Below are positions 1 through 49,239 of a stretch of 64,000 nt of DNA, in pieces. How positions within the stretch are numbered: the stretch's first letter is position 1; each line of letters starts with the position of its first letter. Position numbers and translations under genes: made by a program. This DNA is from an uncultured bacterium (lineage in GTDB: Bacteria > Abyssobacteria > SURF-5), in NCBI GenBank assembly GCA_964607485.1, contig CAZSKP010000018.1, positions 1 through 64,000 of the forward strand, read 5' to 3'. The notes under the pieces are model-generated. The model was not told the DNA's origin. It saw only the letters and a program-made list of their open reading frames with translations, and made no database searches.

Positions 1-90
1 GGTCGCCTGTCTCCAGTTCACAGGGGCGCGTGCTCCGAAGGACGCGCTCTGCCAGTACACACCTCCGGCGCCGGAGCGCCAGGCTTTCCA

Positions 91-224
91 ATTTCGGATT
101 TTGGATTGCGGATTGGAAAGATTTATCCACGAAGAGCACGAAGGATCACGAAGGGCAAAGAGCGAAGGGCGAAGGACGAAGACCGGAAACCAAGTTCTCT
201 GAGACCTCTGTGACCTCTGTGGCA
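91..224. repeat. Cluster of short periodic repeats (7-mers ATTTCGG/ATTTTGG/ATTGCGG and GGGCAAA/GAGCGAA/GGGCGAA/GGACGAA; 9-mer-like CACGAAG x3 and CTCTG(A/T)G x3)
   Basis: Read directly from the intergenic sequence; the 9-mer arms resemble the periodic arms flanking the GxxExxY gene at 20613-21099. Confidence 0.7.
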
Positions 225-3585: not shown

Positions 3586-4425
3586 TTATTCTCCCTTGTT
3601 CCGAATCGTCTTCTTGGTGATGCCCAGTCCGAACACCCTGTTCGCCGTCTTCCAACAGACGTCCTCAGCATGCTCGCGACCGAGAGAGCGAACGGCCTGC
3701 ACGCGCGCAAAGTATTTCTCTTCGGGGAAAATGCGGTCGCTCCCGAACATGAGCCGTCCTCCGCCCACCTGCTCCACCAGATAGCGCAGCACCCCCGGCT
3801 CGCGTGTGCCTTCGGCCTCGGGCAGTTGCAGTCCTTCAAGCTCCACGAAGGCGTTCTTCCACAGGTTTACGAGAAGCGGAATCGCTCCCACCTGGCCTCC
3901 ACCGGCGTGCAGGCAAACGAGCTTAAGGTCCGGAAAAAGCGAGCAGAGCTTGCCGAAATACATCACATGGCTCAGCTCTTCCATGCGCGCGTCCCCGCCC
4001 ATGTGGAACTGAATCGCCAGCTTGTGCTCCTCGCAAAAGCGATACAACGGGAAAAATTCCTTTTGCATGGGATGCTGGCCGAGATAGGGATACACTGTCT
4101 TGACGCACCTGACCAGCCGCGGATGCTTCTCGACCGCCTTGCGGAGGCGTCGAAGCGACTCCTTGGGATTGCGCGAATCGTACACATGCGCGACAAAGAT
4201 TCTGCCGGGATGCTTCTCGGCGTATTCCGCGAAAATGTCCAGCTCACCGGCGGTGACGACCAACGATGAATCCACGCCGGCGTGTTCCATATCCGACAGA
4301 AGGCTCTCAAGCGGCTCTTTCAACTCAGCGGCCGGAAATTCCTTAAAAATGGCCGCCAGGCCGACACGAAAGAACTCATCTCGTATGCTGAACGGCACAC
4401 AATGAACGTGGGCGTCAATTATCAT
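3586..4425 (-). CDS. Amidohydrolase_2 family metal-dependent hydrolase
   Basis: IIDAHVH, QFHMG, LHAGG and LMFGSD motifs; start chosen at MIIDAH after a GGAAGG RBS. Confidence 0.85.
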   Translation of the reverse strand: MIIDAHVHCVPFSIRDEFFRVGLAAIFKEFPAAELKEPLESLLSDMEHAGVDSSLVVTAGELDIFAEYAEKHPGRIFVAHVYDSRNPKESLRRLRKAVEKHPRLVRCVKTVYPYLGQHPMQKEFFPLYRFCEEHKLAIQFHMGGDARMEELSHVMYFGKLCSLFPDLKLVCLHAGGGQVGAIPLLVNLWKNAFVELEGLQLPEAEGTREPGVLRYLVEQVGGGRLMFGSDRIFPEEKYFARVQAVRSLGREHAEDVCWKTANRVFGLGITKKTIRNKGE

Positions 4426-4466
4426 TTCGTCAATCTTCCTTCCGCGCTCCGTGGCGCGGCCGCTCG

Positions 4467-5216
4467 TCACTGGCCGGCGGTGTAGGTGACGTAACCTTCA
4501 TAGATCTCATCGCTATCGTTCAGCGGCCACCTCTCGGGGCAGCGATACGCGTGAACCACGTGCCAGCCCTGAATTATGTGGGAGCCGCGGGGAGCCCACA
4601 GACGGCCTCGAAACCTGCGGGGCAACGGCATCTGCTGGAGCAGCCGCCACTTTTCTCCCGCAAACCGCAAGAGGTCGTTGTACTCATAGATTCTGATGGA
4701 CCTGAACTCGTTGTCGTAGCCGTACCATTCCACGAAGCGAGGATCTTCTGTCGGAGTATAGGCCATCGCGTCCGTATTGTCTATGGCCCAATGCGCGCAG
4801 ACGGCCAGAACGGAACCCGTCCAATCCGTGTACTCCACTTCCCACGACACGACTTCCTCGACGTACGTATCGCTGTAATGGACGCTTCCATTCTGGCGTA
4901 CTTCGAAAAAGTGGTGCAGCAGGAACCTGTCTGAGTGCAGGCCGAACTGACCGTTGGAAAGCCCCTCGGGAATCTTTATGATCTTTTCACGCATTCCCGC
5001 CGGAAGCGGCCACACGCTCTTCGTTTCTCCCCGGCCTTCGTGAGGAGAGACGCGGCCTTTCCCCTCAATCCTCTCCGCATACGTGGACATAGTCCGCACC
5101 TGGTGGAACCGCTCCCAATCCGGGGCCGAGTCGTGCGGTCCCCAGACGTAGTGTATTTTCACCTCGGATATGTCAGGCGAGGGATCGTGCCAATTTTTCT
5201 TCAAATACCAGAACAT
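4467..5216 (-). CDS. Hypothetical Trp/Tyr-rich protein (~249 aa)
   Basis: Strong RBS AGGAGG before the ATG at 5216; first gene of an apparent operon with the amidohydrolase and glgA; no family recognised. Confidence 0.75.
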   Translation of the reverse strand: MFWYLKKNWHDPSPDISEVKIHYVWGPHDSAPDWERFHQVRTMSTYAERIEGKGRVSPHEGRGETKSVWPLPAGMREKIIKIPEGLSNGQFGLHSDRFLLHHFFEVRQNGSVHYSDTYVEEVVSWEVEYTDWTGSVLAVCAHWAIDNTDAMAYTPTEDPRFVEWYGYDNEFRSIRIYEYNDLLRFAGEKWRLLQQMPLPRRFRGRLWAPRGSHIIQGWHVVHAYRCPERWPLNDSDEIYEGYVTYTAGQ

Positions 5217-5771: not shown

Positions 5772-6905
5772 ATGAAAAAGTATTTGTTGATGGCGCCGGG
5801 GCCTACCTCGCTTCCGCCCCAGGTGCTTCTCGCGATGGCCAAACCGGTCATCCATCACAGGACCGAGGAATTCAAGGCCATCCTCAAAGAGATAAATGAA
5901 GGCCTGCAATACATTTTCCGAACCTCCTATCCCGTCCTGATGTTCTCGGCGTCGGGCACGGGCGCGATGGAGGCCGCCGTGGTCAACACGCTGTCGCGGG
6001 GCGACAGGGCCTTGGTCGTGAGAGGAGGCAAATTCGGCGAGCGCTGGGGCGAATTGTGCGAGGCTTACGGAATAGAGGCGCAGGTGCTCGACGTGGAATG
6101 GGGGCGCGCGGTGCAGCCCTCAGAAGTCGAAGCGGCTCTCAAGAAGGATGCCGACATCAAGGCCGTATTCACTACCCTTTGCGAAACAAGCACTTGCGTG
6201 CGGACTGACATCGAGGCGCTCGGCAAAGTCGTTGCTAAGCACCGGGCCGTGCTCGTGGTCGACGCCATCAGCGGGCTCTGCGCCGACGAGCTCAGGACCG
6301 ACGACTGGGCGGTGGACATCGTGGTCGCGGGCTCGCAAAAGGGACTGATGCTCCCGCCGGGGCTGTCGTTCGTAAGCGTGAGCCCCAAGGCCCGCGAAAT
6401 GTTCAAGAAATCGAATCTGCCCAAATACTACCTTTCCTTCGAGAAGGCCCTGAAGAGCTTGGCCAAGACGGACACTCCCTTCACCTCGGCCATATCGCTC
6501 ATCTACGGCCTGAGGGAGTCCATAGCGCTCCTCAGGGGAGAGGGGCTGGACAACGTCATCAGCCGCCACGCGCGCCTCGCGAAGGCGACCAGGGAAGCCG
6601 TCCGCGCCCTTGGGCTCGAGCTTCTCTCAAAGGCTCCCTCCAACGTCGCGACGGCGATCCTGATGCCCCCGGGGATAGACGGAGACGCGCTGCGGAAGAG
6701 GCTCAGCAGCGATCACAACATAACTGTTGCGGGCGGGCAGGAGAAGCTCAAGGGGAGGATCATACGCCTCGCGCATCTGGGCTATTGCGAGGAATCTGAT
6801 GTGATAACCGCGGTTTCGGCTCTCGAGATGGTCCTGAACCGGCTCGGACACACATGCAAGCCGGGCGCTGGAGTGGCCGCGGCGGAAAAAGTGTTTTCGG
6901 AGTGA
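5772..6905 (+). CDS. Class V PLP aminotransferase (alanine-glyoxylate/serine-pyruvate family; probably acts as the phosphoserine aminotransferase)
   Basis: LMAPGPT, SGTGAME, VDAISG, GSQKGLMLPPG (PLP lysine); RBS AAGGAG; directly upstream of serA. Confidence 0.9.
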   Translation: MKKYLLMAPGPTSLPPQVLLAMAKPVIHHRTEEFKAILKEINEGLQYIFRTSYPVLMFSASGTGAMEAAVVNTLSRGDRALVVRGGKFGERWGELCEAYGIEAQVLDVEWGRAVQPSEVEAALKKDADIKAVFTTLCETSTCVRTDIEALGKVVAKHRAVLVVDAISGLCADELRTDDWAVDIVVAGSQKGLMLPPGLSFVSVSPKAREMFKKSNLPKYYLSFEKALKSLAKTDTPFTSAISLIYGLRESIALLRGEGLDNVISRHARLAKATREAVRALGLELLSKAPSNVATAILMPPGIDGDALRKRLSSDHNITVAGGQEKLKGRIIRLAHLGYCEESDVITAVSALEMVLNRLGHTCKPGAGVAAAEKVFSE

Positions 6906-6917
6906 AACGACAAAAAA

Positions 6918-8507
6918 ATGAAGAAGATGAAAATCTTGATAAGCGACCCCCTCGCGGAGCAGGGGCTCGAAGTCATCAAACGGCAGAATGATCTTGTGGC
7001 CGACGTGAAGGTAAAGCTTCCGCCCGACGAGCTCATCAAGAGCATTCCCGCCTACGATGCGCTCATCGTGCGGAGCGAGACGAAGGTGACCGAAAAGGTC
7101 ATAGAGGCAGGCAAAAATCTCAAAGTCATAGGACGCGCAGGCGTGGGGCTGGACAACATTGACGTTCGGGCGGCGACCAAGCGGGGTGTCGTCGTCCTCA
7201 ACGCGCCCGGCGGAAACACGATCTCGACCGCCGAACACACGATATCCATGATGCTCGCCTTGGCCCGCAATATTCCACAGGCCTGCGCCTCATTGAGAAG
7301 CCGCAAGTGGGACCGAAAAAGCTTCACGGGCGCCGAGGTGTACGGCAAGACCCTCGGCATAATCGGCCTGGGAAGAATCGGGAGCGAAGTCGCGCGGCGG
7401 GCGTATGCGCTCGGGATGAAGCTGCTCGGGTACGACCCGATCCTCTCGCCCGAGAGGGCCCGGTCGATCAACGTCGAGCCGACCGAGCTGGATACGCTGA
7501 TAAAGAACTCCGATTTCATCACCCTGCACGTTCCTCTGACCGAACAGACGAAGAATCTGCTCTCGGCGCAACGATTCAAAACGATGAAGCCGGACGTGCG
7601 CATCATAAACTGCTCGCGTGGAGGAGTCGTCGATGAGGCGGCCCTGTGCAAAGCCATAAAATCGGGGAAAGTCGCGGGCGCCGCACTGGACGTTTTCGAA
7701 AACGAGCCGCCGCTGGACAGCCCGCTGCTCGAACTCGACTCGGTCGTTGTGACGCCCCATCTGGGCGCATCGACCGAAGAGGCGCAGGTCAACGTGGCGC
7801 GCGAGGTCGCCGACCAGGTGGTCCGGGCGCTGCGGGGCGAGCCGGTTCCGTATGCCGTCAACGTTCCCACGATCGACCCGGAAGTGTATAAAGAACTCAA
7901 GCCGTATCTCGACCTGGCGGAAAAGCTGGGGCGGTTCCAAGCGCAATATCCCTCCGAAAACGTGCGCGAGTTGGTCGTCGAGGTGTTCGGAGACATAGAG
8001 CAGTTCGACGTGAGACCGGTCAGGACCGCCGTGATAAAAGGCTTCCTGGAAATCTTCCTGCACGAGAACGTCAACTATGTGAACGCGCCCCTGCTGATGG
8101 CGGACCGGAAGATAGCGGTGACCGAGCGCAAGGGAAAGATGCTGCGCGATTACGCCAACCTGATAACGGTTCGCGCGATCACCGACAAGGGAGAATGTTC
8201 CGTCGCCGGGACACTGTTCAGCCTCACCACCCCGCGGATAGTCCGCCTGAACGAGTTTTACATCGATGCCTGGCCCGAGGGAGTTGTGCTCATCTGTTTG
8301 AACGAGGACAAGCCCGGCATCATCGGCAACCTCGGAACCCTGATGGCCGAAAACGGCATCAACATCGGCGCGATGACTCTCGGCAGAACGCGCCGGGGCG
8401 GGAAGGCTGCGACGATCCTGAACCTGGACGCGGAACTCACGGGCGACGCCATCAAACAGGTCAAGAAGATCAAACACATCAACGACGCGAGAGTCGTGAA
8501 GCTTTGA
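6918..8507 (+). CDS. serA: D-3-phosphoglycerate dehydrogenase (long form with ASB and ACT domains)
   Basis: GRAGVGLDNID, GLGRIG, TPHLGASTEEAQ, C-terminal DKPGIIG ACT domain. Confidence 0.95.
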   Translation: MKKMKILISDPLAEQGLEVIKRQNDLVADVKVKLPPDELIKSIPAYDALIVRSETKVTEKVIEAGKNLKVIGRAGVGLDNIDVRAATKRGVVVLNAPGGNTISTAEHTISMMLALARNIPQACASLRSRKWDRKSFTGAEVYGKTLGIIGLGRIGSEVARRAYALGMKLLGYDPILSPERARSINVEPTELDTLIKNSDFITLHVPLTEQTKNLLSAQRFKTMKPDVRIINCSRGGVVDEAALCKAIKSGKVAGAALDVFENEPPLDSPLLELDSVVVTPHLGASTEEAQVNVAREVADQVVRALRGEPVPYAVNVPTIDPEVYKELKPYLDLAEKLGRFQAQYPSENVRELVVEVFGDIEQFDVRPVRTAVIKGFLEIFLHENVNYVNAPLLMADRKIAVTERKGKMLRDYANLITVRAITDKGECSVAGTLFSLTTPRIVRLNEFYIDAWPEGVVLICLNEDKPGIIGNLGTLMAENGINIGAMTLGRTRRGGKAATILNLDAELTGDAIKQVKKIKHINDARVVKL

Positions 8508-19479: not shown

Positions 19480-19563
19480 ATGTAGGAGAAAATCTCCGAG
19501 TCAAACACCGAATCTGAGGAGTTGTTCCTGCATAAGCATCACCTGCGTGGATTTGCCTCCCCG

Positions 19564-20598
19564 ATGAAAGCTTTGAGACAAACCCGGCGACGGTTTCTCC
19601 AATATCTGACGGCTGTGCCGGCGGGCATATGGACGCTCGCGCGTGGCGCAAGCGCGACAGCCGAGACGCTGGAAAAACGCACATCGGCGTCGGCCTTGGC
19701 GTCTTCGCCTCCGAAGGCGACGGTCGGCATCGCGACAAACGCCGCGGCCGTCGGAGCCGGAGAAACAGTGAACAGGCCCGAGGTGGCGAGGCTGCTGAAC
19801 GCCGCAGTTGCCGCAGCAACGGCAAAGGCCGATGCAAACTCCGCGTGGCGGAGCCTGTTTGCTCCCGACGACATAGTCGGCATAAAGGTGAACTGCCTGG
19901 CGGGTCGGGGTCTGTCCACGCATCCGGAACTCGTCGCCGCCATCGTGGACGCGTTGGCAGGGGCGGGCATCTCGAAAAACAGGATAGTGGTGTGGGACCG
20001 GCTGGAGCGCGAGCTGTGGTCCGTGGGCTTTGCCCAATCCGGTGTGAACGGCGCGAGGGTGCTCGCCACGGATTCGAGGGGCATCGGATATGAGAACAAC
20101 ATAGAGTTCTCGGGTGAGGTCGGTTCCTGCTTCAGCAGAATCATCTCGCGCATGTGCACGGCAATCATAAACGTGCCGGTGTTGAAGGACCACGACCTCG
20201 CCGGCGTGTCGCTGGGGATGAAGAATTTCTACGGAGCCATCCACAATCCCAACAAGTATCACGACAACAATTGCGACCCCTACGTGGCCGACCTGAACGC
20301 CCATCGGTTCATTGCGAAGAAGCTGCGGCTGGTCGTGTGCGACGCTCTGAAGGGGCAGTATCACGGCGGTCCGGCCCCGCGCGCTCAATGGTCGTGGCCG
20401 GCGGCCACGGTGCTGGCAGGATGCGACCCTGTGGCCGTGGACCGAGTCGGGCTGGAAATGATCGAGCAGAAGAGAAAAGAGGCGGGCATGCCGCCGCTGA
20501 AGGAGGTCGGCCGCGAGCCGAAGTATATAAGCACCGCTTCCCGGCACGGCCTGGGGGTCGGCGACATCGGGAGAATTACGAAGGTTGCCGTTTCATAA
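19564..20598 (+). CDS. DUF362 domain protein with Tat signal peptide
   Basis: TRRRFL twin-arginine motif; VGIKVN, INVPVLKDH, SLGMKNFYG, DPVAVD. Confidence 0.8.
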   Translation: MKALRQTRRRFLQYLTAVPAGIWTLARGASATAETLEKRTSASALASSPPKATVGIATNAAAVGAGETVNRPEVARLLNAAVAAATAKADANSAWRSLFAPDDIVGIKVNCLAGRGLSTHPELVAAIVDALAGAGISKNRIVVWDRLERELWSVGFAQSGVNGARVLATDSRGIGYENNIEFSGEVGSCFSRIISRMCTAIINVPVLKDHDLAGVSLGMKNFYGAIHNPNKYHDNNCDPYVADLNAHRFIAKKLRLVVCDALKGQYHGGPAPRAQWSWPAATVLAGCDPVAVDRVGLEMIEQKRKEAGMPPLKEVGREPKYISTASRHGLGVGDIGRITKVAVS

Positions 20599-20612
20599 GA
20601 GAAAAACTAAGC

Positions 20613-21099
20613 TAACCACCAAGGCACAAAGACACCAAGAACACCAAACACAAAAAAGCTCTTAGATGAAAACCTTTGAACCGGTTCCTCCCGAGACTGA
20701 CCGCATAGCGCGATTGATTGTTAATGGAGCGTACAAAGTTCACTCTGCATTGGGACCTGGCCTGCTGGAATCTGTGTATGAAGCTTGTTTGCGTCATGAA
20801 TTAAAGAAGTCTGGCGTCCCGTTTGAGGCACAGGTGAGTGTGCCGGTCATATACGACGAGATTCGCCTGGACGCCGGGCTTCGCCTTGACGTGCTCGTGG
20901 CGGATAGCGTGGTTGTGGAATTGAAGTCAGTGGAAACAATGAATCCCGTTTTTGAAGCTCAAATCTTGACATACTTGAAGCTGACAGGGAAACGGCTCGG
21001 CCTGCTGATCAATTTTAATGTTCCTGCAATCAAAGATGGTATCAAGAGGGTTGTTCTCTGAACTTCGTTTTTCTTGGTGTCTTGGTGCCTTGGTGGTTA
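20613..21099. repeat. 29-bp inverted repeat pair (20613-20641 / 21071-21099) enclosing the GxxExxY gene
   Basis: TAACCACCAAGGCACAAAGACACCAAGAA versus the reverse complement of TTCTTGGTGTCTTGGTGCCTTGGTGGTTA: 28/29 identical. Confidence 0.9.
20666..21061 (+). CDS. GxxExxY protein (PD-(D/E)XK nuclease-like fold)
   Basis: VHSALGPGLLESVYEACL, RLDVLV..VVVELKS, AQILTYLK, GLLINFN. Confidence 0.9.
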   Translation: MKTFEPVPPETDRIARLIVNGAYKVHSALGPGLLESVYEACLRHELKKSGVPFEAQVSVPVIYDEIRLDAGLRLDVLVADSVVVELKSVETMNPVFEAQILTYLKLTGKRLGLLINFNVPAIKDGIKRVVL

Positions 21100-21132
21100 C
21101 ATATTGTTTCCTTTGTACTGGGATGATGTGAA

Positions 21133-22299
21133 ATGGGTAGGTTGACTCGCAGAAGTTTCTTGGTGAAGACCGGCGTCGCGGCAGCCGGCGCAGGGGGAGC
21201 GCTGGCTGCGTATCGCTGGGCACGCAGCAGAAAAGCCGTCGCGCCGTCCGAGGCCGTGGCGAGGGAATACGCCAGCCCCGATCAGTTCGTCCGCGAGGCG
21301 ACGCACTACAAGAAGCTCGACGAGGGGCGGGTGGAATGCGAGGTATGTCCACGCGGATGCAAGGTGGCGCTCAAAGAGCGCGGCTACTGCGGCGTTCGGG
21401 AGAACATCGGGGGGACATACCACACCCTGGTTTACGGCCGGGCCTGTTCGGCCAACGTGGACCCCATCGAAAAGAAGCCCCTCTTTCACTTTCTGCCCGG
21501 GGCAAAGGCCCTTTCGATCGCGACCGCCGGCTGCAACGTGGAGTGCAAGTTCTGCCAGAACTGGGAGATCTCGCAGTTCAGGCCCGAGCAGGTCAGGAGC
21601 ATGGATTTTCCTCCTGAGAGAGTCGTGCGGGAGGCGATGCAGAACGGTATCGAGTCGATCGCATTCACGTACACCGAGCCTGTGGTCTTCTATGAATACA
21701 TGTTTGATACCGCGAAGCTGGCGAAGCAAAAGGGCGTCAAGAGCGTGATGATCTCCAACGGGTACATAAAAGAAGAGCCGATGTCTGAGCTTTGCGAACA
21801 TCTGAGCGCGGTCAAGATCGACTTGAAGGCGTTCACCGAGAAATTTTACGTCGAGCTGTGCAGCGGCAAGCTTCAGCCCGTCCTGGACACGCTGAAGCTG
21901 CTGAAGAAAAAGAAGATGTGGTTCGAGATCGTCGTCCTCGTCATTCCCACGCTGAACGACGGCGAGGATGAGATAACGCGGATGTGCGACTGGGTCTGCG
22001 GCGAGCTCGGTCCGGACGTCCCCGTTCACTTCTCGAGGTTTCATCCGACCTACAAGATAAAAAATCTGCCTCCGACGCCGGTCTCTACGCTTACACGCGC
22101 GCGGGAAATCGCAATGTTGGCGGGCCTCAACTACGTGTATATCGGCAACGTGCCCGGCCATGAAGGAGAGTCCACTTACTGCCCGAATTGTAAGAGGGTG
22201 CTCGTGCACCGCATCGGCTACAACATCATTATGGACGGGATAAAGAAGGGCCGCTGCGTATACTGCAACAGGCGTATCGCGGGCATTTGGGAAGCCTGA
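21133..22299 (+). CDS. amrS: AmmeMemoRadiSam system radical SAM enzyme with Tat-like N-terminus
   Basis: CEVCPRGC..GYCGVREN, DPIEKKPLFHF, GCNVECKFCQNW, FTYTEP, YVYIGNV, C-terminal CxxC...CxxC; TRRSFL at the N-terminus. Confidence 0.85.
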   Translation: MGRLTRRSFLVKTGVAAAGAGGALAAYRWARSRKAVAPSEAVAREYASPDQFVREATHYKKLDEGRVECEVCPRGCKVALKERGYCGVRENIGGTYHTLVYGRACSANVDPIEKKPLFHFLPGAKALSIATAGCNVECKFCQNWEISQFRPEQVRSMDFPPERVVREAMQNGIESIAFTYTEPVVFYEYMFDTAKLAKQKGVKSVMISNGYIKEEPMSELCEHLSAVKIDLKAFTEKFYVELCSGKLQPVLDTLKLLKKKKMWFEIVVLVIPTLNDGEDEITRMCDWVCGELGPDVPVHFSRFHPTYKIKNLPPTPVSTLTRAREIAMLAGLNYVYIGNVPGHEGESTYCPNCKRVLVHRIGYNIIMDGIKKGRCVYCNRRIAGIWEA

Positions 22300-47298: not shown

Positions 47299-49239
47299 AT
47301 GAAGGTTCAGAGATATTCATTCATGTTTGTGTGTTTCATCGTTTTCACCATGTTGTTGCCGGGAACGACTGTCTCTGCCGCTCCTATCATTCGACTGGAA
47401 AAGGACGTGCCCCAGAGTCAGGTCTCGCCCGTGCCCACAAACGTCACGTTCGACCTGTATGATTCACCGACATCGACCACCATGGTGGCGACGCAAACCT
47501 TTGCCAGGGGGGAGTGGTGGGCCGACTATGGTTTCAACCGTTTCTCGACCGCTTCCAGCCCCATAGTCAGGTTCAAGGCCGACTTCACGAATACCTCGGG
47601 CCTGACCGGCGCCGTGGACCTGTGGATGGAGATCAGGCTGGATGGCGTGGTGAAGGGACAGCGAGAGCAGGTGAAGAAGGAATGCTGGGCATTGTATTCT
47701 GAGGAAGCGCTTGACGCGGTGCACGCGGAGAATACCGACTTCGCGGCCGACGCGGATATGCTCGACGGGATGGACTCGTCGGAGTTTGTTACCGGTGCGC
47801 ACACTCATGACGGCTCGGATATCGCAACCGGAACCGTGGCCGACGCGCGCATCGCCTCGACCATCGCCCGCGACACCGAAATCATGCCGACGGTGTTGGC
47901 GGGTGACGGCTCCGGCTCCGGCCTGGACGCAGACAGGCTGGACGGACTGACTTCCACCGATTTCAGCGCCGCCGCCCATTCCCACAGCGGGGCCGACATC
48001 ACGAGCGGAACCGTGGCCGACGCGCGCATTGCCTCCACCATCGCCCGCGACACCGAGATCATGCCGACGGTGTTGGCGGCCGACGGACCCGGCTCCGGAC
48101 TGAACGCAGACACGGTTGACGGCGCGCACGCTTCCGGGTTCGTGACACAGGCGGAGTACGACGCGCTGCTCGCGCGGGTGGAGGCGCTGGAGGCGAAGCT
48201 CCAATACATGACTGTCCAGTCCGGCGTAATAAACGGCCTGGCCGGCCCGCACGTCATCTTCACCGGCGCCAACGTCCACATCCGCAGCGGCTCAGGCACG
48301 ACGGACGACGGAGGCTCTCTCACCGGGCGGGGCAACCTCATCATCGGGTACAACGAATATCTCGCCGTGCCCGTGGTCGGCCGGGGCGGTTCCCACAATC
48401 TGATAATAGGACGCACGCACGAGTATTCAAGCTACGGAGGGCTTGTGGCGGGACGGGGGAACACCATCAGCGGCGCTTATGCAACCGTCACCGGCGGCTA
48501 CGGCAACACCGCGAGCAACACGTATGCGAGCGTGAGCGGCGGCCAGGGCGGCACAGCATCCGCCTACGCCGCGAGCGTGAGCGGCGGAAAGGATAACGTG
48601 GCCGGCGGTCAGTATGCGAGCGTCAGCGGTGGTGTCGCAAACGCGGCCGGCGGCAATTACTCGAGCGTGAGCGGCGGGTACGACAACGACGCGACTTATC
48701 TGTATTCGAGCGTAAGCGGCGGTACCGCAAACACCGCCAGCGGCCAATATGCAAACGTCAGCGGCGGCGAAAGCAACGAGGCTTCAAACTATGCGGCGAG
48801 CGTGAGCGGCGGCGTCGGAAACACCGCCACCGGACAATATGCGAGCATCAGCGGCGGGAGCGTAAACATCGCCAGCGGCGACAATTCAAGCGTGAGCGGC
48901 GGCGCAGAAAACGAGGCCGCCGGCGAGTCCGCAAGCGTGACCGGCGGCGACATCAACGCGGCCAACAGCTCCTATTCGAGCGTGACCGGCGGCCGGTACA
49001 ACACGGCCAACGGCTTCGTCTCAAGCGTGACCGGCGGCTACGACAATGACACCATCGGATATTATTCGAGCATCAGCGGCGGCACGCTAAACGAGACCAG
49101 CGCCTACTTTGCGAGCGTGAGCGGTGGCGAAAGCAACGATGCCAGCGGCGAAGCGGCGAGCGTGAGCGGCGGCCTCGGCGTCACGGCCAGCGGCCTGCAT
49201 GACTGGCGTGGAGGCTCCTGCGCGTTCTGCGACAACTGA
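47299..49239 (+). CDS. Secreted repeat-rich fibre/adhesin-like protein
   Basis: Signal peptide; two 59-aa repeats ending G(S/P)GSGL(D/N)AD; short coiled coil; 16 copies of a 15-aa xSVSGGxxNxAxxxY repeat; RBS GGAGGAG. Confidence 0.8.
   Translation: MKVQRYSFMFVCFIVFTMLLPGTTVSAAPIIRLEKDVPQSQVSPVPTNVTFDLYDSPTSTTMVATQTFARGEWWADYGFNRFSTASSPIVRFKADFTNTSGLTGAVDLWMEIRLDGVVKGQREQVKKECWALYSEEALDAVHAENTDFAADADMLDGMDSSEFVTGAHTHDGSDIATGTVADARIASTIARDTEIMPTVLAGDGSGSGLDADRLDGLTSTDFSAAAHSHSGADITSGTVADARIASTIARDTEIMPTVLAADGPGSGLNADTVDGAHASGFVTQAEYDALLARVEALEAKLQYMTVQSGVINGLAGPHVIFTGANVHIRSGSGTTDDGGSLTGRGNLIIGYNEYLAVPVVGRGGSHNLIIGRTHEYSSYGGLVAGRGNTISGAYATVTGGYGNTASNTYASVSGGQGGTASAYAASVSGGKDNVAGGQYASVSGGVANAAGGNYSSVSGGYDNDATYLYSSVSGGTANTASGQYANVSGGESNEASNYAASVSGGVGNTATGQYASISGGSVNIASGDNSSVSGGAENEAAGESASVTGGDINAANSSYSSVTGGRYNTANGFVSSVTGGYDNDTIGYYSSISGGTLNETSAYFASVSGGESNDASGEAASVSGGLGVTASGLHDWRGGSCAFCDN
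47830..48111 (+). repeat. Intragenic tandem duplication, 177-bp period
   Basis: GGAACCGTGGCCGACGCGCGCAT... recurs at 47830 and 48007. Confidence 0.85.
48481..49195 (+). repeat. Intragenic 45-bp period repeat array (AGCGTGAGCGGCGG core)
   Basis: 16 units, each encoding a 15-aa beta-solenoid-like repeat. Confidence 0.85.

Follow-up and report, generated by a model that had tools for sequence, protein, structure and literature searches.

The described elements closest to the one reported here are the intervening sequences (IVSs) of 23S rRNA. The section of PMC4990558 devoted to the Coxiella IVS describes a 428-nucleotide (nt) element with a 28-bp terminal stem, an S23p open reading frame (ORF) in the loop and excision by RNase III, with three tandem GACAGAT heptamers before the ORF. 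For the PDDEXK_3 protein family, to which the cargo of our element belongs, the relevant entry of PMC3424549 lists the function as ‘Unknown’. Here we analyze a 64,000-nt stretch of DNA from an uncultured bacterium of the SURF-5 lineage (contig CAZSKP010000018.1, positions 1 to 64,000; hereafter the window), in which a gene for a 131-amino-acid (aa) GxxExxY protein is enclosed by inverted arrays of short units and stands between two genes of an operon. We read the window copy as a promoterless foldback cassette, an mRNA counterpart of the rRNA IVSs, whose arms would be cis sites for its own nuclease, and we give this reading about an even chance of being right.

The cassette and its two neighbors are arranged as follows.

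19522..20598, + strand: DUF362-family upstream operon gene with a twin-arginine signal (PF04015, E 1.2e-22); context, outside the cassette
20613..20648, + strand: left arm, inverted repeat with the right arm, period 8
20649..20665, + strand: A-rich leader of 17 nt from the left arm to the start codon, read from the sequence
20666..21061, + strand: GxxExxY/PDDEXK_3 nuclease gene, 131 aa (TIGR04256, PF13366)
21064..21099, + strand: right arm, inverted repeat of three CTTGGTG units, period 8, with GTGGTTA at the end
21133..22299, + strand: gene for the radical SAM enzyme of the AmmeMemoRadiSam system, with a twin-arginine signal (TIGR04337, E 1.3e-123; PF04055); context

The left arm begins 14 nt after the DUF362 stop codon with a TAAC terminus, followed by the 8-nt units CACCAAGG, CACAAAGA and CACCAAGA, which start at 20617, 20625 and 20633, and by a degenerate fourth unit. 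Only 2 nt lie between the ORF stop codon and the right arm, and 33 nt between the right arm and the radical-SAM start codon. A repeat search pairs the arms over 36 nt (20613-20648 with 21064-21099) at 89% complementarity, with 415 nt between them. In the 29-nt core (20613-20641 versus 21071-21099), 28 of 29 positions are identical, the sole mismatch setting a CACAAAG unit of the left arm opposite CACCAAG in the right one, and the arm units of the window are accordingly written CAC(C/A)AAG. Tandem Repeats Finder (TRF) reports a period of 8 in both arms, with 4.4 copies at 20617-20651 and 3.0 copies at 21072-21095. Direct reading of the neighbors’ N-termini finds the twin-arginine motifs TRRRFL (DUF362) and TRRSFL (radical SAM). 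The GC content of the ORF is 0.49, compared with 0.62 and 0.59 for the neighbors, and its GC content at third codon positions (GC3) is 0.52, compared with 0.76 and 0.79; by composition, the ORF is foreign. The first-pass annotation of this DNA had described arms matching at 28 of 29 positions, a 131-aa GxxExxY ORF as the only gene between them, an ORF more AT-rich than its surroundings, and DUF362 and AmmeMemoRadiSam neighbors that are both of the twin-arginine type. All of this agrees with the repeat search, the profile matches, the GC3 values and the motifs read by eye. The period of 9 bp given there has to be corrected to 8 nt, as the unit starts and TRF show.

The leader of 17 nt is not long enough for a promoter, and a Shine-Dalgarno sequence is not evident in it by direct reading. 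No promoter-like site is predicted on the + strand of 20300-21400, no terminator-like site is predicted at the window arms, and no Rfam family, rRNA included, matches in 20300-21400. In the predicted RNA fold of a 536-nt stretch, the arms pair in both the minimum free energy and the centroid structures (z = -3.0). The two-unit pattern occurs four times in the 64-kb window, always in the arms, where 1.09 occurrences are expected and 4 of 100 shuffles reach four. A tblastn search of the window found no second copy of the GxxExxY gene.

We then turn to relatives of the gene. A scan of species-representative genomes gave 79 loci with relatives at 53-71% identity, from Acidobacteriota, Planctomycetota, Chloroflexota, Pseudomonadota (Alpha-, Beta-, Gamma-, Delta- and Zetaproteobacteria), Bacteroidota, Ignavibacteria, Verrucomicrobiota, Armatimonadota, Sumerlaeota and one Methanosarcinaceae bin (loci are cited below by L numbers). 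An inverted-repeat score was obtained by aligning the 200 nt upstream of each gene to the reverse complement of the 200 nt downstream. It is evident that the flanking inverted repeat is general, with z above 3 relative to shuffles in 74 of the 79 loci. The score exceeds 27 in 66 loci and is at least 30 in 60, while 239 control windows around 400-nt pseudo-genes at the same loci have a median of 17, a 95th percentile of 22 and a maximum of 27. Pseudo-genes were chosen because only two real host genes had both flanks free of elements. The RNA duplex energies of 120-nt flanks were dropped as a measure, since they do not separate cassettes (median -70.0 kcal/mol) from host controls (-66.5 kcal/mol). 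The first-pass annotation had counted it as a refutation if other GxxExxY genes lack flanking inverted repeats; the periodic arms around relatives in many phyla show the opposite.

The aligned arms nearly always consist of one motif, ACCAC-NAAG-N-CAC-NAAG and onward. With a loose pattern, unit runs are present on both sides in 67 of the 79 loci; with a strict pattern (CAC-N-[AG]-[AC]-G, 1-3 nt between units), they are present on both sides in 59 of 80 sources, the window counted. Strict runs occur at 3.85 per kb in the flank zones and at 0.094 per kb in the other 561 kb, and 222 are observed in total compared with 12 in one mononucleotide shuffle of all sequence. Among 118 arms, 88 have three units, 24 have two and 6 have four. 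The most frequent units are CACAAAG (107), CACCAAG (80), CACGAAG (75) and CACGACG (22), and the spacers between them are mainly A, G or GA, which results in periods of 8-9. The outer arm end approximates ATT(C/T)(A/C)AC and precedes the first CAC. Both the anatomy of the cassette and its conservation across phyla are secure. In one Chloroflexi locus (L020, 3925-3965), a palindromic insert of ~26 nt (…GTGCCTGCTGCACAGTGCAGGC…) splits the left arm between its first and last units. An Rfam search of eight loci returned sub-threshold matches to microRNA-like hairpins only.

Distant homologues were sought in a plasmid collection, where eight records matched and seven, on plasmids or chromids and at 33-60% identity, were examined. 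Periodic inverted arms are found in four of the seven, built from related units: CGCAGAG in Gemmatirosa, CACAGAG in Bacteroides finegoldii and in Bernardetia, and CGCGAAG in Sphingomonas, where the gene lies between fabD and fabG (L082). The three exceptions carry a single 11-bp inverted repeat, a direct repeat and other periodic repeats, respectively. On a Fusobacteria plasmid (L084, 1330-1900), the gene is flanked by a ~45-nt direct repeat (…CAGATTTAATCCGTGTACCTAT…), not an inverted one.

The two arms of a locus resemble each other more than arms drawn from permuted loci. Agreement between arms is 99% within a locus compared with 91% for permuted loci at unit position 5, and 93% compared with 78% at position 6. 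At position 4, it is 52.5% compared with 30.4% (maximum 43.9% in 1000 permutations), and in the spacer 42.6% compared with 19.2%. The CAC..AAG core is thus kept in both arms while the free N positions drift, which is expected of a recognition sequence more than of a stem that only pairs. These results suggest that the arms serve a pairing role plus a recognition role, and the data would fit selection at either the RNA or the DNA level.

The cassettes sit inside operons. We examined the longest ORFs on each strand beside a cassette and retained those with a Pfam match at E <=1e-8, which left 38 upstream and 17 downstream sides without a validated neighbor. The nearest validated upstream gene shares the cassette strand in 38 of 41 loci, all but L001, L006 and L038, and the nearest validated downstream gene does so in 51 of 62. 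When shared contexts are merged and the window is counted, the upstream gene is on the same strand in 35 of 38 contexts, and there are at least 35 distinct upstream gene contexts. In all six annotated plasmid or chromid records, both neighbors are co-directional with the cassette. The host operons are ordinary ones and include cusB-cusA (L015 and L023), sufB-sufC (L033, L059 and L060), trpD-trpC (L027 and L031), moxR-DUF58-batA (L050 and L072), type II secretion E-F (L077), pduL-BMC (L016) and fabD-fabG (L082); in a propionyl-CoA carboxylase alpha/beta operon (L006) the cassette is antisense. Spacing is close on both sides: the first unit follows the upstream stop codon at a median of 17 nt, and the next in-frame start follows the last unit at a median of 14 nt. 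A few values of -3 come from taking a GTG inside the arm as the start. The upstream TAA is itself part of the arm terminus (TTTAACCAC) at several Chloroflexi loci, where the next ATG directly follows GTGGTGAAAA. Since an inverted repeat is identical on both strands, the orientation bias must reflect a requirement that the ORF be expressed from host transcription.

The identity of the protein is clear from profile searches. It matches TIGR04256 (GxxExxY; E 1.1e-42, 145.1 bits, cut-off 35) and, over profile positions 2-117 of 117, PF13366 (PDDEXK_3; E 1e-40, 139.2 bits, cut-off 22). Its motif residues are G32-L-L-E35-S-V-Y38, D75, E85-L-K87 and Q99xxxY103, and an alignment of 42 homologues has 31 invariant columns, including E35, Y38, D75, E85, Q99 and Y103, with K87 conserved in at least 90%. 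The order E...D...ExK...QxxxY is that of RecB-family nucleases. The AlphaFold2 model (mean predicted local distance difference test score 93.5) has the element order H-H-E-E-E-H-E, and its top Foldseek matches are Cas4 SSO0001 (4ic1; E 5e-3, template modeling score 0.49), lambda exonuclease and AdnAB nuclease domains, followed by Hjc (1gef; root-mean-square deviation 3.7 Å over 104 columns) and tRNA-splicing endonucleases, every match having E >1e-3. The predicted structure is a restriction-endonuclease-like alpha/beta fold of the PD-(D/E)XK class. No match was found in a PDB sequence search with the 131-aa protein, in a PHROGs search or in a tblastn search of 50,697 phage records, and the sole PADLOC match is a weak one to a Cas4 profile (E 0.005).

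The family is large: in an exhaustive library search, 19,490 clusters (50% identity) match at E <=0.001 and 6,509 at E <=1e-10, and a word-indexed search finds at least 8,000 relatives of near-equal length. Among the matches listed, the top relatives are 65-73% identical and come from several phyla. The ratio of nonsynonymous to synonymous substitution rates (dN/dS) is 0.030-0.204 in 16 syntenic orthologue pairs with computable dS, six further saturated pairs and one with a dS of 0 being excluded from this range. The gene is therefore under purifying selection. Its GC3 is lower than that of validated neighbors in 73 of 75 loci (median difference -0.18), and the low GC3 persists even in lineages where residence has been long enough to saturate dS.

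Two-domain tandem GxxExxY proteins also occur, for example P0241 (293 aa) and P0121, which hints that the single-domain protein may work as a dimer. A series of predicted fusions (P0124-P0240; 13 examined) join a complete housekeeping domain, via a linker of ~40-50 aa, to a C-terminal GxxExxY domain. The partners are RNase H, CobU, NUDIX, ROK glucokinase, HAD, SecDF and FAD-binding domains, and in the 13 examined the GxxExxY domain is C-terminal in ten and N-terminal in two, with one tandem. These fusions are probably ORF calls running through the nearly T-free left arm. The RNase H-GxxExxY fusion, which recurs in more than 20 clusters, might be a real protein. Annotators should be aware that an apparent fusion of a housekeeping enzyme to a GxxExxY domain may reflect read-through across a cassette.

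We next consider how long cassettes stay in place and how they decay. In Chloroflexi, an operon encodes a 200-aa protein (X200), GxxExxY-1, an N6/N4 DNA methylase (MTase), GxxExxY-2 and a HerA-like ATPase; its carriers include L013, L014, L020, L022, L037, L049, L051, L055 and L074, and in some loci an extra protein of ~200-220 aa lies between the methylase and GxxExxY-2. This operon, X200-G1-MTase-G2-HerA, has two cassette sites (G1 and G2), each variably filled. The G1 site at the X200-MTase junction is filled in seven loci, holds a short hairpin in L051 and holds only the last right-arm unit in L074. Because L051 and L074 keep arm remnants, they look like deletions, not naive targets. Identity among the G1 orthologues is 66-89% and parallels that of the neighbor genes (76-87%), a pattern that indicates vertical descent with occasional loss.

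Gene-less forms are found elsewhere too. Applying the strict pattern to the 80 fetched sources, we defined an ORF-less hairpin as a left-type run, a loop of at most 150 nt and a right-type run. There are 31 such hairpins in 23 of the 80 sources, 14 of them away from a GxxExxY gene and one in the window (128-221). In the hairpin at 897-1037 of L010, the loop retains the first 16 codons of the GxxExxY gene. The L010 and L051 hairpins and the L074 stump visibly arose by deletion from ORF-bearing copies. In L060, ORF-less hairpins occupy several spacers of a single suf operon. The window hairpin belongs to the following feature.

88..222, no strand assigned: gene-less cluster of periodic arrays at the window start, just upstream of a minus-strand gene (TRF, strict pattern)

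TRF reports rows at 91-114, 128-157, 149-181 and 197-221 in this cluster. It contains, in order, three GGATT-type 7-mers (91-114), three CACGAAG units (128-153), four to five degenerate CGAAGGG-like units (149-181) and CTCTGTG units (197-221), with strict runs at 128-153 (+) and 206-221 (-) around a loop of 52 nt. Its appearance is that of an ORF-less hairpin of the CACNAAG cassette class that has degenerated or is a hybrid.

L067 has two intact copies 2.1 kb apart that are near-identical over the 3′ 375 nt of the element, the right arm and ~35 nt beyond. Over the 5′-most 100 nt of the ORF the likeness falls to ~60%, and the left flanks are unrelated; the shared stretch is a conversion or recombination tract. 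At 3948-4813 of the same locus, copy 1 has, ~35 nt beyond its right arm, a third, 5′-truncated GxxExxY gene with its own right arm at 4789-4813. The truncated copy is joined at a short shared string, CTGGC, which is suggestive of recombination between copies. In L052, two ORF-less composites of ~290 nt each have periodic arms and a ~90-nt inner inverted module that match the left end of the ORF-bearing copy found on this contig, and also the left end of the L070 copy, in another genome. These composites look like amplified derivatives resembling miniature inverted-repeat transposable elements (MITEs). Long identical stretches are shared by L052 a and b and by L067 copies 1 and 2; most paralogues are only ~60% identical.

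Periodic arms also enclose a gene of another family. At 6843-7355 of L016, a 140-aa 23S_rRNA_IVP gene (6881-7300; TIGR02436, E 2.3e-17; PF05635, E 8e-13) has four AAGTCAA units on one side and their inverse on the other. The gene is inside a protein-coding gene cluster of a Planctomycetaceae genome, and the upstream stop codon abuts the arm. As both GxxExxY and IVP genes are found in like arms, two unrelated small proteins ride periodic foldbacks, each with its own unit.

In our reading, a cassette consists of a GxxExxY gene in the loop between inverted arrays, usually of three 8-nt CACNAAGN units with an ATT(C/T)(A/C)AC-like terminus. It occupies a stop-to-start spacer on the strand of the host genes and would be transcribed by read-through. 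In the transcript, the arms would pair, loop the ORF out and bring the upstream stop near the downstream start, as the terminal stem of an IVS does. The long arm duplex would be the type of substrate cut by host RNase III, and such a duplex could make the insertion tolerable inside an operon. The arms may also be sequence-specific cis sites, most likely for the encoded nuclease, because both arms preserve the CAC..AAG core and let the N positions vary. Recombination between copies and ORF-less hairpins, in place of classical cut-and-paste transposition, would be the means by which the nuclease maintains and spreads the cassette. The RNA side of this proposal is supported by the IVS analogy, by the IVP gene in periodic arms and by the same-strand bias with the upstream gene. 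Expression of the foldback cassette by read-through is likely; RNA cleavage, binding of the arms and mobility are what we infer for it. The pattern points to a widespread, apparently undescribed kind of selfish or semi-domesticated cassette, and no description of flanking repeats of GxxExxY/PDDEXK_3 genes was found in the literature searched, curated family descriptions and subscription journals being outside that search.

If the proposal holds, the anonymous GxxExxY family would become a defined genetic element with testable cis sites, a mechanism for tolerating insertions within operons would be suggested, and a possible route would open to the long-standing question of the origin and spread of rRNA IVSs. 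A bolder version is that GxxExxY proteins are the enzymes of a new foldback class, which recognize their own arrays and those of ORF-less hairpins, copy the element into these hairpins and into new stop-to-start spacers by break-induced recombination and depend on IVS-like self-removal from the transcript, so that the host would hardly notice the element. We think this version unlikely. Were it true, ‘transcript-silent’ cassettes would form a super-class with the S23p-bearing 23S rRNA IVSs as one of its branches, and a function would be assigned to a family of ~19,000 protein clusters.

A number of observations weigh against the foldback-cassette proposal. The flanking inverted repeat is not significant in 5 of the 79 loci, and periodic inverted arms are absent from three of the seven distant homologues. 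About half of the position-4 pairs are mismatched, so that many stems are interrupted. The sense transcript shows no G.U bias, with 43 sense-compatible and 35 antisense-compatible transitions (142 mismatches in 1226 columns), and RNA-level selection on the stem is therefore not demonstrated. When the arm subtype (unit positions 5-6 scored AA, AC or GA) is placed on the protein tree, there are 10 changes compared with 15.3 for shuffled labels, and none of 200 shuffles is as low. The covariation of arms with protein clades that the first-pass annotation proposed to look for is thus visible as clustering of subtypes, but it is loose, with frequent switches, and kinship alone accounts for it; L021, the closest relative of the window protein (71%), has CACAGAG units. 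No target-site duplication was found in 59 loci, 64% of which lack a boundary repeat compared with 54% in the control of permuted flanks, although the element boundaries are fuzzy enough for short duplications to have escaped notice. In many cases, paralogues of one genome are old (~62% identity). The fixed Chloroflexi site, the in-step divergence and the purifying selection suit a useful resident gene better than an active parasite. To our knowledge, PD-(D/E)XK nucleases have no strand-transfer activity alone. The interpretation in the first-pass annotation, which also took the arms as possible sites for the encoded protein, is partly supported. Of its two possibilities, a mobile cassette is favored by varied contexts, ORF-less derivatives and the conversion tract and disfavored by the missing target-site duplication, the vertical residence in Chloroflexi and the loose match of arm subtype to protein tree, and an RNA-level intervening element draws support from the IVS analogy and the strand bias with the upstream gene and loses it through the missing G.U bias.

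These points bring up the alternative that GxxExxY is a resident, host-useful nuclease gene (repair, recombination or defense), whose arms are only an RNA-level expression device on which the nuclease does not act. The stem would mask the leader, be cut by RNase III or preserve the coupling of cistrons and would in this way hold a potentially harmful nuclease at a low level, and the gene would have spread by ordinary horizontal transfer and recombination. Strong purifying selection and a long vertical stay at one operon site are what such a gene would show, as are an upstream gene on the cassette strand in 38 of 41 loci, the lack of a promoter of its own and the failure to find a target-site duplication. 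The GC3 below that of the host in 73 of 75 loci is compatible with selection for low expression, and by direct reading the innermost unit often provides AAGGA or GGAGG, resembling a Shine-Dalgarno sequence, immediately 5′ of the start codon. However, a plain stem has no need of a conserved CAC..AAG core with free N positions, and the sense-strand G.U bias that an RNA device would lead one to look for is absent. This alternative also leaves unexplained the scattered ORF-less hairpins, the multi-copy composites, the conversion tract that covers the element plus ~35 nt, and the like design around an unrelated protein family. We regard it as possible, with the chances clearly against it.

Alternatively, the hairpin could be an independent repeat, similar to a repetitive extragenic palindrome (REP) or a MITE, that is mobilized or maintained by another enzyme or by host processes, with GxxExxY and IVS-family genes as its cargo or with hairpins as landing pads. 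The abundance of ORF-less hairpins (31 in 23 sources, 14 away from a GxxExxY gene), their presence in several spacers of the suf operon of L060, the two unrelated protein families in periodic arms and the weak tracking of the protein tree by arm subtype could all be explained in this way. But the units differ by cargo (CACNAAG and AAGTCAA), each cargo having its own arm type, and arms accompany nearly every GxxExxY gene examined, including those in Bacteroidota at 42-50% identity. Deletion visibly produced at least three of the ORF-less hairpins (L010, L051 and L074), and no other candidate transposase recurs beside the cassettes, which weighs against an independently moved repeat. We consider this explanation improbable. 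That the inverted repeat is due to chance, or is an ordinary terminator or attenuator of the DUF362 gene, can be set aside with near certainty. Judged by the window only, the two-unit pattern departs just modestly from chance (four matches, a number reached by 4 of 100 shuffles), but the comparative data refute both versions, with 66 of 79 loci of relatives scoring above every control window (239 in all). In addition, 415 nt separate the arms, the sequence 3′ of the right arm is A-rich, not T-rich, and no terminator is predicted at the arms.

Some further repeat-bounded sequences were noted. At 109-689 of L077, inverted arrays of CG(A/C)AATCC 7-mers surround a 152-aa ORF with a weak TadE-like match, and these arrays, together with the GGATT array at 91-114 of the window, may be a third arm type. 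Near the GxxExxY cassette of L069 (6148-6635), a 100-aa ORF resembling REP-associated tyrosine transposases (RAYTs) lies between 32-nt palindromic repeats; its match to NF047646 (E 1.8e-6) is below the cut-off, and it appears to be a fragment, although the layout is a textbook one for REP/RAYT-like loci. Nested tandem repeats of 45, 90 and 135 nt at 48570-49046 of the window (TRF scores up to 302; GCGAGCG…GGCGG-rich) are probably inside a coding region and are unconnected to the cassette.

The cassette was also compared with known systems. An intrinsic terminator is ruled out by the 415-nt distance between the arms, the A-rich sequence after the right arm and the lack of a predicted terminator, and an integron cassette by inverted repeats around one ORF in place of direct attC sites, no integrase being seen beside the loci. 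With Cas4, RecB and lambda exonuclease, the protein has in common the fold and the motif order E...D...ExK...QxxxY. Unlike Cas4, it is 131 aa long without an Fe-S cluster domain, and the window locus has no CRISPR context. PD-(D/E)XK homing endonucleases exist, such as I-Ssp6803I, and the likeness to them lies in a small nuclease ORF centered in a symmetric site, in the presence, decay and apparent absence of the element at one locus, and in the conversion tract between two GxxExxY copies. The cassette differs from them in being outside any intron or intein, in its many unrelated insertion sites and in lasting purifying selection at fixed sites, and cleavage of the hairpin would be hypothetical.

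MITEs and foldback elements also have terminal inverted repeats, ORF-bearing and ORF-less copies with common ends (L052 a, b and c) and several copies per contig. In contrast to them, the cassette has no DDE or other known transposase (PF13366 only) and no target-site duplication, and most copies are old and diverged. A classical transposon with terminal inverted repeats is ruled out by the lack of a transposase family and of a target duplication. REPIN-RAYT systems are the second analogue after the IVSs, and the resemblance to them is that one small nuclease-type gene lies between inverted copies of a short repeat that is also found as gene-less hairpins in operon spacers (31 among 80 sources). 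RAYT genes are inherited vertically and are under purifying selection, as are GxxExxY genes. Here, however, the protein is a PD-(D/E)XK nuclease and the window ORF has no HUH/Y1 transposase match, the arms are arrays of 8-nt units and not single REP palindromes, and a genome has several diverged GxxExxY paralogues, each with its own arms. Identity with a RAYT system is ruled out, as there is no HUH enzyme.

The comparison with rRNA IVSs goes furthest. Identity is ruled out by the non-rRNA site and the PDDEXK_3 cargo: the host of the GxxExxY cassette is an operon mRNA, between two protein-coding genes, and not 23S rRNA, and the cargo is a PD-(D/E)XK nuclease and not the four-helix bundle of S23p/23S_rRNA_IVP. 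The cassette unit is CACNAAG with period 8, and cleavage by RNase III is something we only infer here. What the two have in common is transcription within the host transcript without a promoter of their own, an element of ~430-490 nt with a ~130-aa ORF in the loop of a terminal inverted-repeat stem, and 7-8-nt tandem units just upstream of the ORF.

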